Shown piece by piece: positions 1 through 7,500 of a stretch of DNA of 64,000 nt. The stretch comes from Escherichia phage UGJNEcP1. Under the pieces are notes generated by a model that did not search any database, was not told the origin of the DNA, and worked only from the letters and a program-made list of their open reading frames with translations. Position numbers and translations under genes: made by a program. The stretch lies in the sequence record OV754623. One strand, 5' to 3'. How positions within the stretch are numbered: position 1 is the first letter of the stretch; each line of letters starts with the position of its first letter.

Positions 1-104
1 CTAACTTCAGAATCTTTGATGCTCTGGCGTTGCAATCTCATTTTATTCTCCTCTTCACTTTTATTTGATAGGGCTACTATAACATAGCCCTATCTGATTG
101 TACA

Positions 105-509
105 CTACTTTTTAAAAGTTTTTTGCAAAAGTTTGATGATTTCGTCGACGTTGGTTTCATCTACGATACAATGGATTTTTGTTACACCTAAAGTTATACC
201 TTCGTTAGTAGGTTGAGGCTTTTCTAAAGTTACCTCAGTAAAGTACTCAATAAAGTATTTGAACTCGTCAGGATAAATCTCAAAATAAGTTTCAATTTCA
301 CCACCGGCAGAGCATACAGTACCATCTTCCATAGTTACACTTACTACGTTTGACGTATCGCTATCATAATCAGGTTCCATTCCGTTTACAACAAAACTAG
401 GCCCGTGGAGTTCAATCAATTTTAACATCTTAGCGTTATTATGTGGTGCTTCTTGAACAAAGTCGTCTTTAAATAAAGGGTTAATGATATAAGATTTTCC
501 GATTTCCAT
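105..509 (-). CDS. hypothetical protein downstream of gene 32 (frd-region small ORF)
   Basis: 134-aa ORF with SD-like GAGGAAA upstream of ATG; position downstream of 32 as in T4; no recognisable motif. Confidence 0.5.
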   Translation of the reverse strand: MEIGKSYIINPLFKDDFVQEAPHNNAKMLKLIELHGPSFVVNGMEPDYDSDTSNVVSVTMEDGTVCSAGGEIETYFEIYPDEFKYFIEYFTEVTLEKPQPTNEGITLGVTKIHCIVDETNVDEIIKLLQKTFKK

Positions 510-538
510 TTTGATTTCCTCATGTTGTTGATAGGTCT

Positions 539-567
539 ATACTAACACATCCAGGGAAGAAGTAAAC
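539..567 (-). promoter_or_regulatory. T4 early-type sigma70 promoter (minus strand: GTTTAC, 17 nt, TAGTAT)
   Basis: plus-strand gtaaac at 562-567 and atacta at 539-544 with 17-nt spacer, just upstream of ORF 105..509. Confidence 0.45.
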
Positions 568-597
568 AACTTTTTCGGCAATTTACAGATACTCAAA

Positions 598-616
598 AGG
601 GAGACCGAAGTCTCCC
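598..616 (-). terminator. intrinsic terminator hairpin with UUCG tetraloop after gene 32
   Basis: minus strand reads GGGAGAC-UUCG-GUCUCCC followed by UUUUGAG, immediately 3' of gene 32 stop. Confidence 0.6.
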
Positions 617-622
617 GATTTA

Positions 623-1525
623 TTATAGACCAGCTAACAGGTCATCGAGGTCACCATCATCAGAGGATGAGGTAGAGCTCATGAAGTCATCTTCAGTTTT
701 TGCAGAACTAAAGGCTTCCATGTCTTTATCAAAATCGTCAAGGTCAGAAGCAACTTTATCTGCAACAGAAGCTGCGGCAGCTGCTGCACCGCCCAGAGCG
801 GCAGTACCAAGAACCTTAGCGAAAGATTCATTTAATTTTTCAAAGGATTTGAACTGGTCTTTAGCCGTCAAAGTGGTAAGGTCTACCATCTGGTCATATA
901 GTTCTTTCTGGAATGCTTCATCATTAATACGAGGAATTTCAGATTGACCCAAGAATTTAGATTCGTCATAGTTGCTAAAACCAGAAACCTGCTTAGCTTT
1001 CAGAACGAAGTTAGCACCTTCAAATGGACAAGTAACATCAACTGGAGTTTCACCCATTTCGGTATCAACTGCAATCATTGCATTGATTTTGTCCCAAATC
1101 TTTTTACCGAAACGATATTTAAATACTTTACCTTCGTTATCTGGAGCTTGAGGGTCTTTAACAACCAGAATATTAGCCCAATAAGAAGTTTTACGTTTCA
1201 GTTGAGAATATTCAGTTTTGTTGGTATTGTACAGGTCATTTTTAATAATGTACTGACATACAGGACAAGAGTCGTAATCCCCATGTGTAGAAGAGCAATT
1301 TTCAATATACCATTTACCATTTTTCTTGAAACCGTGGTTAACAAGAATTGCAAATGGTAGTGCATCATCAGTTTTTGCTGGCAAGAAACGAATTACCGCT
1401 TGACCATTACCTGATGCATCTAGCTTCAGCTTCCATTCGCCTTTATCTTCTGAAGAGAAACCTTTGTTACCGTTCAGTTTAGCCATTTGAGCAGCGAGGT
1501 CAGCAGTAGATTTACGTTTAAACAT
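623..1525 (-). CDS. 32: single-stranded DNA-binding protein gp32
   Basis: 300 aa; N-terminus MFKRKSTA...[27 protein letters not shown] matches T4 gp32 as I recall it; acidic Ser/Asp-rich C-terminal tail. Confidence 0.95.
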
Positions 1526-1612
1526 TATATTTACCTTTATTTAGATTATTTAATTTATTTACAGTTGGTTGCTACGACACTTATACCTCGTAGCTGGTAT
1601 GTTTTATTTATA
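1526..1612 (-). promoter_or_regulatory. gene 32 leader: AU-rich (U)UAAA repeat operator, hairpin/pseudoknot candidate, and a late-promoter motif
   Basis: minus strand upstream of the AUG reads TAAATAAATTAAATAATCTAAATAAAGG; hairpin GCTACGA-loop-TCGTAGC at 1571-1594; TATAAATA on minus strand at 1605-1612. Confidence 0.5.
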
Positions 1613-1641
1613 AAGTAATTTTAACACGCAAGAAATAAAGC

Positions 1642-2295
1642 TTAATACTTACATGATTTGATTGTTTCTATGAACAATTTCTTAGCAGCATTTCCATCGA
1701 TTTGAAGTATTTTTCGATATGCCTTTAATTTGGTAGAATAATTTTGCCAGACTAAATTGTCGGTAAGTTCGTCATGCTTATCTATAATATTCAAGAATGA
1801 ATCTAACAACAAGAAGGTTTCAAATGAAATTATATTGCTTTGTAGCAATTTAAATATGTAGCTCGACTGAACTTTATTATTATAATCAAATATCTCTTGA
1901 AGCGCACTAACTTCCACTTTCTTACTGAAATAGTAGATGTTACGTACGTCTTCAGCAAACGTCTCCTTGGCTTGTTTGAGACGTCCAATGTATTCCCTAT
2001 AGAAAACTAATGCATCAGCGTCTGATATCTCACCAATCCATGCGTCTTGGTTAGCAACTAAGTTGCTTATGAATATCAAGGTGAGTTCCTTCAATTTATA
2101 TTTCTCTGCTAGTTTTTCAAAGAAATATTTATCTCGGCGTTTTTGATACGCATTATCCGAAACACGCATGCACCAGTTATATTTGATTACGTCATACCGA
2201 CCACCAAAATGGTTTTTGCACATCAAGTATAGTTTATATACTGATTTTCCATTAATATAACGTTCTCCATCAGGAGGCATGCGTATTTTAATCAT
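1642..2295 (-). CDS. 59: helicase loader gp59
   Basis: 217 aa, same length as T4 gp59; position between 33-side and 32. Confidence 0.85.
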   Translation of the reverse strand: MIKIRMPPDGERYINGKSVYKLYLMCKNHFGGRYDVIKYNWCMRVSDNAYQKRRDKYFFEKLAEKYKLKELTLIFISNLVANQDAWIGEISDADALVFYREYIGRLKQAKETFAEDVRNIYYFSKKVEVSALQEIFDYNNKVQSSYIFKLLQSNIISFETFLLLDSFLNIIDKHDELTDNLVWQNYSTKLKAYRKILQIDGNAAKKLFIETIKSCKY

Positions 2296-2971
2296 ATTTC
2301 CATCCGGGCCATTTTGAAGATTTAAGTCTATATGTAACTAAAGACGCAGAAATATTAAAAACATTTGAAACTTCTTTACACGAGGCGTATTTTATACCAT
2401 CAATAGTTATAGGTTTTTGTTTTTTAATAGTCCTTTCTCTAGAATGTGGTTTTGAATTTGCTATTCTAAGAGCTTCTTTAGTGGAATCAGGCATCGCCTT
2501 ATTCGTTTTTCTCCCTTTTCGGACTTTACTCAAGGCCAATTTGTGAGCTTCAGATAGTTTCTTACCCTTATTAGGGGACGGTATTTTTCTTTCTAGTCTT
2601 GTTTTAGATACTTTAGCCTTAGTCTCTTCAGATCTAGGTTTACCTAATTTAGAAAGTGAAATGGCCCTTTTAGCTTCATCACTTTGTTTTTTGCCAGGAC
2701 CACCTTTACCACCGGGAACTAAGTTATAAGTATCATCTCGCAAAACAAAATCTTCATTAACCAATTCTGCTTCTTTTTTATAGGCGTCCTTGTCATTATC
2801 ATATTCATAAAGAATTTCGGTATAAAAATTTTTTAGTCCATATTTAGCTTTGGCCGCTAATATAGCGCGGCCTGATCCAATATACCAATCTTTCTCTTTA
2901 TGTTTTTTATGTACGCCTATATAAATTTTACCATTTATTTTATTGGTAGTTTTATACACAACGTATTTCAT
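2288..2971 (-). CDS. GIY-YIG homing endonuclease (Seg-like free-standing HEG)
   Basis: N-terminal YVVYKTTNKINGKIYIGV GIY-YIG motif; Lys/Arg-rich C-terminal DNA-binding region with NUMOD-like repeats; 8-nt overlap with 59 and 4-nt overlap with 33. Confidence 0.8.
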   Translation of the reverse strand: MKYVVYKTTNKINGKIYIGVHKKHKEKDWYIGSGRAILAAKAKYGLKNFYTEILYEYDNDKDAYKKEAELVNEDFVLRDDTYNLVPGGKGGPGKKQSDEAKRAISLSKLGKPRSEETKAKVSKTRLERKIPSPNKGKKLSEAHKLALSKVRKGRKTNKAMPDSTKEALRIANSKPHSRERTIKKQKPITIDGIKYASCKEVSNVFNISASLVTYRLKSSKWPGWKYD

Positions 2972-3306
2972 AATAAGAAATCTAACGTATTAGTTTTTTC
3001 ACCACGAGCAACTGATGGGCGAAGCATGTTTTCGTCAATTGCTTCGCTTGTAATTTTTTCAACAATTCCTGTAGGAATAAATTTAGCAAATTGTGTTTCT
3101 GGAATAGAATTTTCTTCCAAGAAAGCAGTTGTTGCTTCTAAATAAGACATACCAAATTGTTCAACCATGGATTCAATAATGAATCCGTTTTCTTGCCGGT
3201 CAAGCAATTTAGCGATATCATCTTTATCGTGTTTTACTGCTAATTCTTGTTCAGATAAACCGGCCTCATCAACCGGTTTAATATCACTTAGTGAAAACTG
3301 TGTCAT
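2968..3306 (-). CDS. 33: late transcription co-activator gp33
   Basis: 112 aa; MTQFSL...ENGFIIE...EATTAFLEENSIPETQFAKFIP matches T4 gp33 as recalled. Confidence 0.9.
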   Translation of the reverse strand: MTQFSLSDIKPVDEAGLSEQELAVKHDKDDIAKLLDRQENGFIIESMVEQFGMSYLEATTAFLEENSIPETQFAKFIPTGIVEKITSEAIDENMLRPSVARGEKTNTLDFLL

Positions 3307-3553
3307 AAAGCTCGACTACCTCTTCGTTTTCAGCTTCAAATTGGTCACGAGCATCTTTATGATAAAGAGCTAACAAACGATTAAACATTTTTCCATCAAC
3401 GCCAAGCTCTTCTTTAGCACGAGTACGAATGTCTTTAATCAGTTCATTATAACCAGAAATTTTAAGTTTGTTATCGGAAGCTTCCTTGACTAGTTTAGCC
3501 AGTTCTTCACCATGCACATCTTGATTAAATTCAACTGCTTCTTTCTTAGCCAT
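3284..3553 (-). CDS. dsbA: late-transcription dsDNA-binding protein DsbA
   Basis: ORF 3284..3571; likely start at internal MAKKE giving about 89 aa as in T4 DsbA; synteny between 33 and rnh. Confidence 0.75.
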   Translation of the reverse strand: MAKKEAVEFNQDVHGEELAKLVKEASDNKLKISGYNELIKDIRTRAKEELGVDGKMFNRLLALYHKDARDQFEAENEEVVELYDTVFTK

Positions 3554-3560
3554 GTTTACC

Positions 3561-4478
3561 TCAGAATTCATTAATTACACTTGTTAATTTAGAAAGACCA
3601 GATTTTACAAAATATGAATAAATCTTGCCTTTAGGTTGTTGTTTATATGAGTTATAATACTCTATAATGGTTGAAGCAATATTATCAGGGATATAATCAA
3701 AATCAATGAGAACCAAATTTTCTTGATACCGTTTATATTCTTCTGCACTTAATAATACTTCAGCTTGAGAACGGTCGTTAGCAATTGCTTCAATAATTGA
3801 TGTTTTCATGCTCGGAGTTCGTTCACCTTCAACTCGAGTAAACCAGAAGTCACCACGAACTCGAACAGATGCGACACCATCCTTACGGTCACCTTTAAGA
3901 ATTTTAGTCATGCAATCAATTTCAGCAGAACCATTCTTAATTTTAACCCATTTTTTCTGTGGTGGCGACCACTGTTTAACGTTAGGATATTTGTGTAATT
4001 GTGTAAAGTCACCATCTGATGCAACAATACATACCTTATGTCCAGCTAATGACAAATATTTGGTTAATACACCAATATGGTCATCCGCTTCATACTTGTC
4101 AATATCCATTACAACGTATGGCATGTATTTCTTAATCTCATCAACAACTTGATGGAGTGCAGTAAAATATCCTTCCCAATCCCACTTTGAAGCTTCACGA
4201 TCGGTTTTACGATTTTTCTTGTAATAGTAAGCAAAGTCACGTCGCCAATAACCTGAAGTAGCATTATCCATACACAATACAAATTTTGTATAGCCTTGCT
4301 TACGGAACATCACTACGTTTTTACGAATTGAATTCAAGATTACATGGCGAACCATCGGAACAGTAATTTTATCGCCGTCTTCAAAGTTGTTTAATGCAGC
4401 TGCCAATGCAATGTTACTAAAGTCGGCAAGTGCAATACCTTCTTTGTAATCTTCATCCAACATCATTTCTAAATCCAT
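3561..4478 (-). CDS. rnh: RNase H (FEN-family 5'-3' exonuclease)
   Basis: 305 aa, same as T4 RNase H; synteny adjacent to gene 34. Confidence 0.9.
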   Translation of the reverse strand: MDLEMMLDEDYKEGIALADFSNIALAAALNNFEDGDKITVPMVRHVILNSIRKNVVMFRKQGYTKFVLCMDNATSGYWRRDFAYYYKKNRKTDREASKWDWEGYFTALHQVVDEIKKYMPYVVMDIDKYEADDHIGVLTKYLSLAGHKVCIVASDGDFTQLHKYPNVKQWSPPQKKWVKIKNGSAEIDCMTKILKGDRKDGVASVRVRGDFWFTRVEGERTPSMKTSIIEAIANDRSQAEVLLSAEEYKRYQENLVLIDFDYIPDNIASTIIEYYNSYKQQPKGKIYSYFVKSGLSKLTSVINEF

Positions 4479-4510
4479 ATGAACCTCTTGTTCAGTTAGT
4501 CAACTTGACT

Positions 4511-4540
4511 ATAGTAACACACTCATTTGAAAGCGTAAAC
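4511..4540 (-). promoter_or_regulatory. early-type promoter for rnh (minus strand)
   Basis: plus-strand gtaaac at 4535-4540 with TAnnnT -10 candidate about 18 nt away, upstream of rnh start. Confidence 0.35.
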
Positions 4541-4543
4541 TGG

Positions 4544-4551
4544 TATAAATA
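4544..4551 (+). promoter_or_regulatory. T4 late promoter TATAAATA for gene 34
   Basis: exact TATAAATA about 30 nt upstream of gene 34 AUG. Confidence 0.7.
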
Positions 4552-4581
4552 AGTATTATTGAAACAATAAAGGAAAAACGA

Positions 4582-7500
4582 ATGGCCGACATCAAACGTA
4601 AGTTCAGAGCCGAAGACGGTCTGGACGCCGGTGGCGACAAGATTGTTAACGTAGCATTAGCCGACCGTACAGTAGGTACAGATGGCGTAAACGTTGACTT
4701 CCTGGTACAAGAAAACACCGTTCAAGTATATGATTCTACGCGTGGATATAACAAAGGATTTGTTGTTCTTTATGACAACCGTTTATATCAAGCAATAAAT
4801 GATATCGTGTCTCCTTCAGGGGCATTTAACCTTTTACAATGGCGTGCAGTTCGTACCGATGCACAATGGATAACTGTCGCTTCTGGGACTTATCAACTTT
4901 CTTCAGGTGAATCTATTTCGGTTAACACTGGTGCTGGCAATGATATGGTTTTCACATTGCCAAATGCGCCGGTTGATGGTGATACTGTTGTTTTGGCTGA
5001 TATTGGTGGAAGAACCGGGACAGTTAAAGTACAGATTAACGCGTCTGTGCAGAGTATTTTAAACTTTAGAGGTGAACAAGTTCGTACAGTTTTAATGACG
5101 CGCCCACGTTCACAACTATTGTTTGTGTTTAGTAATCGCTTGTGGCAGATGTATATCATTGATTATGGTAAAGAATCAATCACTGTTACACCTGCGACAC
5201 CATATCAAGCACAAGCAAATGATTTTATCGTTCGTCGTTTTACTAGTGCAGCACCAATCAACATTACACTTCCACGTAATGCTAACAATGGCGATATAAT
5301 CACCCTAGTCGATTTAGATAAATTAAACCCACTGTATCATACAATTGTTAAAACATTTGATGATACAACGTCTATTGGTGAAGTCGGGACTCATATTGCC
5401 GAAGGCAGAAATGACTCTGACGCGTTTTTTGTTTTTGATGCTTCAAATAGTTTATGGCGTATATGGGAAGGCGACCAGAAATCGCGTCTTCGTATTATCC
5501 GTGCGGATTCAAATATTCGTCCAAATGAAGAAGTTCTTATTTTTGGCACAAATAACGCTACATCCGGAACTATTAATCTTACGCTGCCTACAGGAATTTT
5601 GAGTGGTGACACTGTTAAAATTTCAATGAACTACATGCGTAAAGGCCAAACAGTAAAAATTAAAGCTGCCGAAGGTGATACAATTGCTTCTTCTGTTGCA
5701 TTGCTTCAGTTCCCTAAACGTTCTGAATATCCACCTGATGCTCAATGGGTCTCTGTTACTGAACTAGAATTCAATGGCACTACTTCGTATGTTCCTGTAT
5801 TAGAATTAGCATATATTGAAGATACCGATTCCGACACTCATTATTGGGTTGTGCAACAGAATGTCCCTACGGTAGAACGTGTTGATGCTGGAACTGATGC
5901 TACACGAGCTCGTTTAGGTGTTATTGCTCTTGCTACTCAAGCGCAAGCAAATGTTGATTTAGAGAATACTCCAGCTAAAGAAGTGGCTATTACTCCTGAA
6001 ACGTTGGCAAATCGTACAGCAACTGAAGCTCGACGTGGTATCGCTAAAATTGCTACAACAGCACAAGTTAACCAGAATTCCACAGCAACATTTGTGGACG
6101 ATACTATTGTTACGCCTAAAAAACTAAATGAGCGTACAGCAACTGAAACTCGTCGTGGTCTTGCTGAAATTGCTACTCAGGCTGAAACCGATGCTGGTCT
6201 TGACGACACAACGATTATTACACCTAAGAAATTGCAGGCACGTCAGGGTTCTGAAACACTATCTGGTATAGTTAAATATGTATCAACTACTTCTGCTACT
6301 CCTGCTGAAACTCGTGGGGCAGCAGGCACTAACGTTTATAATAAAACCGTAAATAATTTAACTATTTCCCCTAAAGCCCTTGACCAATATAAAGCAACTT
6401 ATGCTCAACAAGGTGCAGTAATTTTAGCTGTTGATAGTGAAGTAATTGCTGGACAATCTCAAGCAGGTTATTCTCACGCTGTAGTAACTCCTGAAACACT
6501 ACATAAGAAAACTTCTACTGATGGACGTATTGGTTTAATTGAAATTGCTACGCAAGCAGAAACTAATACTGGGACTGATTATACACGTGCAGTAACGCCT
6601 AAGACGTTAAATGATAGGAAAGCTACGGAAGGAATATCCGGCATAGCCGAACTTGCTACGCAAGTTGAATTTGATACTGGAACTGATGATACTCGTATCT
6701 CGACTCCACTGAAAATTAAAACTCATTTTGATTCTTCTGACCGTACCAGTGTTAATTCTGATTCCGGACTTATTGAAGAAGGAACCTTGTGGAACCATTA
6801 TACTCTTGATATTTCTAAAGCAAATGAAACACAACGTGGTACACTTCGCGTAGCGACCCAGGCAGAATCTAATGCAGGAACTTTAGATGATGTTCTTATT
6901 ACTCCTAAAAAGCTTTTAGGGACTAAGTCCACTGAAACGTCTGAAGGCGTAATTAAGGTTGCTACTCGGGCTGAAACTGTAACAGGAACTTCTGCTAATA
7001 CTGCTGTATCTCCTAAGAATTTAAAATGGATTGTCCAGAACGAACCAACATGGGCTGCTACTACGGCAATTCGCGGATTCGTTAAAACTTCATCCGGTTC
7101 TATTACATTTGTTGGTAATGATACAGTTGGTTCAACACAACCTTTAGAATCATATGAGAAAAATAGCTATGCAGTATCACCATATGAATTAAACCGTGTA
7201 CTTGCTAACTATTTACCATTAAAAGCAAAAGCTGCTGACGCAAATTTATTAGATGGCCTAGATTCATCTCAGTTCATTCGTAGGGACATTGCACAGACGG
7301 TTAATGGTTCACTAACCTTAACCCAACAAACGAATCTGAGTGGCCCTCTTGTATCATCTAGTACCGCTACGTTTGGTGGATCAGTTTCGGCAAATAGTAC
7401 ATTAACTATTTCTAATACTGGAACGGCAACTCGTCTGATTTTTGAAAAAGGACCTCAGACTGGAACTAACCCAGTACAGACGATGACTATCAGAGTTTGG

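Follow-up and report, generated by a model that had tools for sequence, protein, structure and literature searches.

The DNA analyzed here, referred to as the window, is a 64,000-nt stretch of the genome of Escherichia phage UGJNEcP1 (record OV754623). Its first 3 kb are 100% identical to Escherichia phage UGJNEcP2 and 93–98% identical to many Mosigvirus (RB69-like) phages, and on this similarity we assign the source of the window to the RB69-like T-even phages (Mosigvirus). The genes and the terminator considered below are as follows, with the evidence for each in parentheses.

105–509, minus strand: frd.2-like ORF (ORF list; annotations of relatives)
599–616, minus strand: intrinsic terminator after gene 32, GGGAGAC-UUCG-GUCUCCC followed by UUUU (terminator scan; annotated in phage SA79RD)
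623–1525, minus strand: gene 32, 300 aa, both the repressor and the regulated gene in the reading proposed here (ORF list; Pfam PF08804 gp32, E = 2e-60)
1642–2295, minus strand: gene 59 (helicase loader), upstream of gene 32 (Pfam T4_Gp59_N and T4_Gp59_C; annotations of relatives)
2288–2971, minus strand: GIY-YIG / I-TevI-type homing endonuclease gene, 227 aa (Pfam I-TevI_DNA-bd, NUMOD3, and SegE_GIY-YIG)
2968–3306, minus strand: gene 33 homologue (annotation of relatives)

The leader of gene 32 lies within the 116 nt that separate this gene from gene 59 and is therefore read on the minus strand. It is numbered throughout on that strand from the A of the AUG at 1525, such that position −N corresponds to 1525+N. 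A plus-strand ORF at 1487–1618 (43 aa, TTG start) was without support, and nothing on the plus strand calls for explanation. A scan of 400–2600 for sigma-70 promoters stayed at chance level (nine hits vs. 7.6 expected).

The protein encoded by the ORF at 623–1525 is 92% identical to RB69 gp32 over 278 aligned residues and 82% identical to T4 gp32 over 268, and by these alignments the gene downstream of the leader encodes a gp32 orthologue. The 21 of 278 aligned residues that differ from RB69 gp32 fall mostly within residues 181–240. At the nucleotide level this corresponds to the most diverged part of the gene, nt 481–720, which retains only 72–84% identity to RB69 per 120-nt block, against 90–97% in the blocks on either side and 100% in the leader from −76 to −1; the distribution suggests a mosaic or recombinant segment inside gene 32. 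The terminator at 599–616 is a strong one; it lies 7 nt past the gene 32 stop codon and scores on the plus strand as well, and its RB69 homologue was predicted by TransTerm (Nolan et al., 2006). The homing endonuclease gene between genes 59 and 33 is absent from RB69. In T4, segG lies between genes 59 and 32, and in phage VR5 an endonuclease gene sits directly upstream of gene 32, so that the gene 32 neighborhood appears, from gene order in these genomes, to be a recurrent target of homing endonucleases.

In the mRNA sense the leader reads ...UAA GCUUUAUUUCUUGCGUGUUAAAAUUACUU UAUAAAUA AAAC AUACC A GCUACGA GGUAU AAGUG UCGUAGC AACCAACUGUAAAUAAAUUAAAUAAUCUAAAUAAAGGUAAAUAUA AUG, and it contains the following elements.

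1526–1570, minus strand: A/U-rich, unstructured arm of the proposed operator, −45 to −1 (motif count; near-zero folding energy; identical RB69 segment)
1561–1569, minus strand: conserved box ACCAACUGU, one base 3′ of the pseudoknot (AACUG counts; leader listings)
1571–1600, minus strand: H-type RNA pseudoknot, −75 to −46 (pseudoknot scan; covariation; energies; invariance in Mosigvirus; RB69 RNase V1 data)
1600–1596 with 1587–1583, minus strand: stem 1, 5 bp, AUACC with GGUAU
1595, minus strand: loop 1, a single A
1594–1588 with 1577–1571, minus strand: stem 2, 7 bp, GCUACGA with UCGUAGC
1582–1578, minus strand: loop 2, AAGUG
1605–1612, minus strand: TATAAATA, −10 element of a predicted T4-type (gp55-dependent) late promoter, −87 to −80 (exact motif; invariance in Mosigvirus; SA79RD annotation; RB69 prediction)
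1610–1650, minus strand: predicted MotA-dependent middle promoter (RB69 homologue; boxes read from the sequence)

Between the pseudoknot and the AUG, the segment from −45 to −1 consists of 26 A, 12 U, 3 G, and 4 C (84% A+U), and the folding energy of −45 to +15 is only −1.1 kcal/mol, which fits an unstructured operator arm and bears out an earlier note on this DNA that had described an unstructured A/U-rich stretch here. The same note had counted five UAAA/UUAAA motifs in it. The cluster is present, but the number is six, with UAAA at −36, −32, −27, −18, −14, and −8 (first bases 1561, 1557, 1552, 1543, 1539, and 1533), and UUAAA occurs only once among them, at −27/−28. Six UAAA were reached in just 0.05% of composition-matched shuffles of the 46 nt (P = 5e-4), and no other place on either strand of the whole 64 kb holds at least six UAAA per 46 nt. 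The Shine-Dalgarno sequence AAGGU, at about 1533–1537, is itself part of the arm, which runs on to the AUG. Folding of the whole 131-nt leader was no stronger than that of shuffles (z = −0.05), but this score carries no information, as the leader is expected to be largely unstructured and the folding does not model pseudoknots.

The stable hairpin that had been reported upstream of the repeats, GCUACGA...UCGUAGC, was recovered with 7 bp, arms 10 nt apart, and an energy of −8.6 kcal/mol. The 30-nt element from 1571 to 1600 has a minimum free energy of −9.4 kcal/mol vs. −3.7 ± 2.1 in shuffles, 1.6% of which equal it; the stability of the hairpin by itself is modest, and it is covariation that makes it convincing. 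AUACC (1600–1596), 5′ of the hairpin, can pair with GGUAU (1587–1583), the first five of the bases between its arms, which makes the whole an H-type pseudoknot, conserved in homologous leaders. The earlier view of a hairpin with a pseudoknot nearby was thus right as to the pseudoknot but not as to a separate hairpin next to it, since the hairpin is stem 2 of the pseudoknot. Stem 1 has an energy of −4.1 kcal/mol as an isolated hairpin, and because ViennaRNA cannot score pseudoknots its support comes from covariation and published V1 data.

For the comparative analysis, gp32 loci were taken from IMG/VR, metagenomes, and a phage collection, and their leaders were scanned by a fixed-geometry pseudoknot search. 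Ten distinct variants share the architecture at the homologous site, just 5′ of a conserved ACCAAC-type flank. They were placed in one alignment (A3) comprising the window/RB69 type, T4, a T2-like type (L014), Klebsiella phage Marfa (Marfavirus), a close relative of Marfa (L033), the Klebsiella KPN6/pKp20 type (Jiaodavirus), Serratia phage CHI14 (Winklervirus), Escherichia phage VR5, L023, and L025. Standard pairs fill 95.8% of the pseudoknot cells in A3 (100% in stem 2 and 89.6% in stem 1), a figure to be read knowing that these sequences were chosen by the pseudoknot scanner within homologous leaders, which favors pairing. All failures are confined to the outermost pair of stem 1. Double-sided changes occur in 8 of the 12 pairs; columns 14 and 31, for example, hold C-G in five sequences and U-A in the other five. 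The covariation score of 0.687 compares with 0.215 ± 0.037 for shuffles, none of 500 reaching it, and when the 3′ partners were moved out of register by 1 to 3 columns, pairing fell to 23–50% and the score to at most 0.19. This register control, together with the conserved flanks and the pattern seen at individual pairs, leads us to consider an artifact of selection unlikely. Sequence comparison across several T4-like genera thus supports both stems of the pseudoknot. A relaxed-loop version of the scanner returned 10–13 on almost any leader, even those lacking the homologous element, and was set aside as non-discriminating. An Rfam cmscan of 1–5000 with E up to 10 gave only chance hits to SNORA1 and MEG8, both elsewhere, and as no family matched, no curated model was applicable to the leader.

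The hairpin could instead be taken for a rho-independent terminator of gene 59 transcription that is not part of any operator. It does lie downstream of the gene 59 stop codon, and in the record of phage SA79RD (OL960576; L001 2062–2095, equivalent to about 1562–1595 of the window) the homologous hairpin is labeled a terminator on the basis of WebGeSTer. The stem is followed, however, by AACCAACUGUAAAU, which has no U tract, and for this reason the SA79RD label is probably a mis-annotation. Our terminator scan of 400–2600 was silent on the hairpin, yet it found the true gene 32 terminator, and no TransTerm terminator was predicted between genes 59 and 32 of RB69 (Nolan et al., 2006). Between its arms the hairpin carries GGUAU, which covaries with the upstream AUACC, a relationship that a terminator does not need. 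With a late promoter upstream, the hairpin falls inside the resulting transcript, and polycistronic transcripts extend into gene 32 in T4 (review PMC3014915). Given the missing U tract, the lack of a scan or TransTerm call, and the loop covariation, we reject the terminator reading, which we regard as extremely improbable, and treat the hairpin as stem 2 of the pseudoknot in the gene 32 leader.

The leader can be interpreted against direct experimental data, since from −76 to −1 it matches that of RB69 at 76 of 76 positions, and the RB69 leader has been experimentally characterized, which supports its interpretation as an operator. By comparison, identity to RB69 is 89% over the first 834 nt of gene 32 and 78% at third codon positions. 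With the leader identical at every position and gp32 at 92%, the operator is under stronger constraint than the protein. The bases numbered in the RB69 study (G-61, C-42, U-20, U-14, G-10, G-9, and U-2) all match the window at the same positions. In that study, A-1 to A-45 of the leader were hypersensitive to DMS and DEPC and insensitive to RNase V1, i.e., unstructured, and the pseudoknot segment was V1-sensitive (Borjac-Natour, Petrov, and Karam, 2004, Virol J 1:4; PMC535899). The footprint of RB69 gp32 on its own leader was strong between U-14 and G-61 and weak between U-2 and G-9, T4 gp32 protected C-42 to G-61 of the same RNA, and RB69 gp32 repressed its own synthesis both in vivo and in vitro (PMC535899). 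By analogy, the gp32 of this phage, 92% identical to that of RB69, probably binds and represses in the same way, with the pseudoknot as its likely nucleation site and the arm as a probable lattice for cooperative binding that would occlude the ribosome-binding site.

The arm might also be read without a gp32 lattice, mainly as a target of RegA or as an A/U-rich translational enhancer or landing pad for S1. Unstructured A/U-rich leaders generally favor initiation, and the folding energy of the arm is in keeping with this. RegA sites are A+U-rich and unstructured (review PMC3014915), and an in vitro selection study of RB69 RegA, by its title in the reference list of the same review, reports UAA triplets. 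RegA, however, acts on many mRNAs, whereas the UAAA cluster is unique to this leader in 64 kb, and the footprint and the translational repression by RB69 gp32 were obtained on this exact sequence (PMC535899). Neither a RegA target nor an enhancer accounts for that footprint. Both would be compatible with control by gp32, and an enhancer and a gp32 lattice can coexist in one arm. We consider it unlikely that the arm serves mainly these other functions, and we retain the gp32 lattice as its probable role.

Upstream of the pseudoknot, the late-promoter motif that the earlier note had pointed out is an exact TATAAATA at 1612–1605, in the intergenic gap 79 nt from the AUG, and it is invariant in nine Mosigvirus leaders, as is the pseudoknot. 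The motif is not enriched in the AT-rich window (five found vs. 7.4 expected). Four of the five copies nevertheless lie outside ORFs of at least 80 aa, and all five point at a downstream ORF on the same strand; this placement counts, since sites scattered at random would not show it in a phage genome where coding is so dense. The copy in the leader is annotated as a late promoter in phage SA79RD (OL960576), and for RB69 a late promoter (Pl:147067) was predicted with the low score of 7.5 (Nolan et al., 2006, supplement file 4), which gap-free alignment carries over to 1594–1636 of the window. As the T4 late-promoter motif spans −13 to −6 relative to the start (PMC1524935), the late transcript is predicted to start at ∼1599, at most one base from the 5′ end of the pseudoknot. 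A MotA-type middle promoter is also predicted in RB69 (Pm:147081, score 18.1; Nolan et al., 2006, supplement file 4), and transferred by gap-free alignment it would occupy 1610–1650, overlapping the late promoter region. T4 middle promoters have a MotA box (GCTT...) some 12–15 bp ahead of a TAnnnT −10 element. The window has a MotA-box-like GCTTTA at 1641–1636, slightly beyond the segment 1526–1612 of the earlier note, and a −10-like TAAAAT at 1623–1618.

The proximity of promoter-like elements to the pseudoknot extends beyond Mosigvirus. In the window, in L025, and in the CHI14-type leaders (L022/L023), stem 1 is preceded by TATAAATA at a distance of 3–5 nt, and the Marfa-type and KPN6-type (L097) leaders have TATAAT 7–9 nt from stem 1. 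No T4 message is more stable than that of gene 32, and every gene 32 transcript of T4 is cut back by RNase E to −71, a point just 5′ of the pseudoknot (review PMC3014915). The T4 −71 site is four bases from the T4 stem 1. With AAUUA as the model of the T4 −71 site for RNase E, we found none adjoining stem 1 of the window, the nearest being at −95 to −91 (1616–1620). From the positions of the promoter-like elements and of the T4 cut, we infer that the mature 5′ ends of gene 32 messages in general would fall at or near the pseudoknot.

With such 5′ ends, the pseudoknot could be chiefly a stabilizer of the mRNA against 5′-end-dependent attack by RNase E, repression being secondary. The stability and trimming of the T4 message speak for this, as do TATAAATA or TATAAT near stem 1, through which primary transcripts too would begin at the pseudoknot. 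On the other side, the pseudoknot and the UUAAA elements are both essential for repression in T4 (review PMC3014915), and RBG32-delta-op, a truncated RB69 clone that lacks pseudoknot elements, was among the constructs with which autogenous repression was demonstrated (PMC535899). Stabilization is also compatible with operator function and no replacement for an operator. A 5′ pseudoknot may therefore contribute to the unusual stability of gene 32 mRNA; that this is its main role, ahead of nucleating gp32 on the operator, is possible but on balance doubtful.

Taken together, the pseudoknot, the UAAA arm, the gp32 gene downstream, and the full identity with RB69 agree with the T4-type gp32 translational operator that the earlier note had recognized in the leader. 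We are highly confident in identifying the element, with its proximal promoters, as the operator for autogenous translational control of gene 32 in an RB69-type (Mosigvirus) phage. In the model adopted from T4 and RB69, the leader would act in two parts, the H-type pseudoknot from −75 to −46 and the 45-nt unstructured arm that continues through the Shine-Dalgarno sequence to the AUG. When gp32 is in excess of the available single-stranded DNA, it would nucleate at the pseudoknot and its 3′ flank and spread cooperatively along the A/U-rich arm until the ribosome-binding site is covered and initiation is blocked. Newly formed single-stranded DNA would titrate gp32 off the leader and allow translation to resume. 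A transcript from the TATAAATA late promoter would have its first base no more than about one base away from where the pseudoknot begins, and a MotA-type middle promoter is predicted about 12 nt farther upstream, so that mature messages would begin at or near the pseudoknot, much as they do in T4 once RNase E has cut at −71. Read-through transcripts from gene 59 would carry the operator as well.

Among the Mosigvirus leaders (alignment A4), the UAAA array at 1541–1560 of the window changes length in steps of whole 9-nt units, UAAAUAAUC, of which zero, one, or two extra are present: one in p000y (L246) and L084 and two in Shf125875 (L244). The leader of PhAPEC2 (L245) has an extra UAAAUAAA-like unit. 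Judged from these leaders, the length of the presumed lattice is evidently free to vary and the nucleation site is not.

Beyond this genus, the pseudoknot with compensatory changes is common to Mosigvirus, the T4 group, Winklervirus, Marfavirus, Jiaodavirus, and the VR5 group, a survey result that bears on the remark of a review that autocontrol in diverse T4 relatives needs study (PMC3014915). In many T4-like phages gene 59 stops 10–27 nt before the gene 32 AUG, leaving no room for the pseudoknot; CC31-type loci are examples (L005–L009, L011, L013, L016–L017, L026, and L104). Other leaders have a spacer in which the scan detected no compact pseudoknot (e.g., L019–L021 and L197–L198). RB49 has been reported to lack the pseudoknot (PMC535899; PMC3014915), in agreement with our leader survey. 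A further group (L178, L192/193, L195, L233, and L031) keeps a perfectly complementary 7-bp stem 2 with longer loops of 13–20 nt; for these large-loop variants we claim conservation of stem 2 only. The tail after stem 2 is ACCAAC in L178, L192/193, and L233 and AACAAC in L195, with none such in L031, which resembles Yersinia phage TG1. L178 has almost no A/U-rich arm before its AUG.

The best-conserved part of these leaders is the box ACCAACUGU, whose family consensus is AA(A/C)AACUGU(U/A)AA. AACUG occurs between −60 and −11 in 53 of 64 distinct gp32 leaders vs. 8% of control 50-nt windows from the same loci, an excess that could be inflated by shared descent and A-rich context. The box falls within the strong footprint of RB69 gp32. 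Beyond the window, leaders with the box include L005, L009, L016, L026, L104, and L197. Leaders without a compact pseudoknot have one to four copies, and two to four where gene 59 ends near gene 32. In the CC31-type leaders, three copies lie inside the 3′ end of gene 59 in three different reading frames, and protein coding therefore cannot explain them. We tentatively raise the idea, which we think rather improbable at present, that the box might be an unrecognized sequence-specific element of gene 32 leaders, perhaps an ancestral nucleation or recognition site for gp32 or another factor, to which the pseudoknot would be a lineage-specific addition. A description of the box was not found in the literature searched, most older subscription papers being outside its reach. 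We also looked at ACCAACUGUAAAUAA, which shares an 11-nt match, AACTGTAAATA, with CC31-type leaders, as a "ghost" of the ancestral gene 59 3′ end (N-C-K-stop vs. K-N-C-K-Y-stop of the CC31 type). As the similarity further upstream is poor, this stays a speculation.

The gp32 leader operator as such is already known, being a textbook case of autogenous translational control, and this exact sequence was dissected in RB69 in 2004; the only additions made here are the comparative table of covariation and the AACUGU box. For annotation, the hairpin should not be labeled a terminator, as it is in at least one related GenBank record, and gene 32 of Mosigvirus phages can safely carry a pseudoknot operator together with the late and middle promoters. 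The AACUGU box offers a cheap target for mutagenesis.

Of the known systems, the RB69 operator is the closest, sharing the same pseudoknot, six UAAA motifs, and Shine-Dalgarno/AUG context. The late and middle promoter sequences upstream are also the same, with five substitutions between −116 and −77. RB69 differs in being another Mosigvirus isolate, in 21 of 278 gp32 residues, and in having no homing endonuclease gene between genes 59 and 33.

The leader also aligns with that of T4 gene 32, the comparison that had been proposed as a check, and the pseudoknot arms and the A/U-rich arm are largely conserved. Architecture and order are the same, with a 7-bp stem 2, a 1-nt loop 1 (A), and the loop 2 AAGUG, the pseudoknot being followed by ACCAACUGU and then by the A/U-rich repeat arm to the AUG. 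Stem 2 differs by a compensatory change of U-A to C-G (T4 GCUAUGA/UCAUAGC, window GCUACGA/UCGUAGC), and stem 1 is AUACC/GGUAU (5 bp) in the window vs. UGCC/GGUA (4 bp) in T4, with two changed pairs. The arm of the window is about 6 nt longer and built of UAAA units, whereas T4 has mostly UUAAA. In T4, moreover, segG overlaps the 5′ part of the pseudoknot and TATAAATA is absent from the position immediately upstream.

The T2-like leader L014 (UGACC a GCUAUGA GGUCA uacaucg UCAUAGC), which we take to be the T2 sequence, aligns column for column with the window element but has a loop 2 of 7 nt rather than 5 nt and another stem 1 sequence. The NMR structure of the T2 gene 32 mRNA pseudoknot (2TPK; Holland et al., 1999, cited in PMC3014915) is likewise an H-type pseudoknot, with two coaxially stacked stems. 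A more distant parallel is the operator of E. coli rpsO, where ribosomal protein S15 also represses its own mRNA via a pseudoknot in the translation initiation region. There, both sequence and protein are unrelated to those of gene 32, and S15 traps the ribosome on the mRNA instead of cooperatively coating an unstructured arm.
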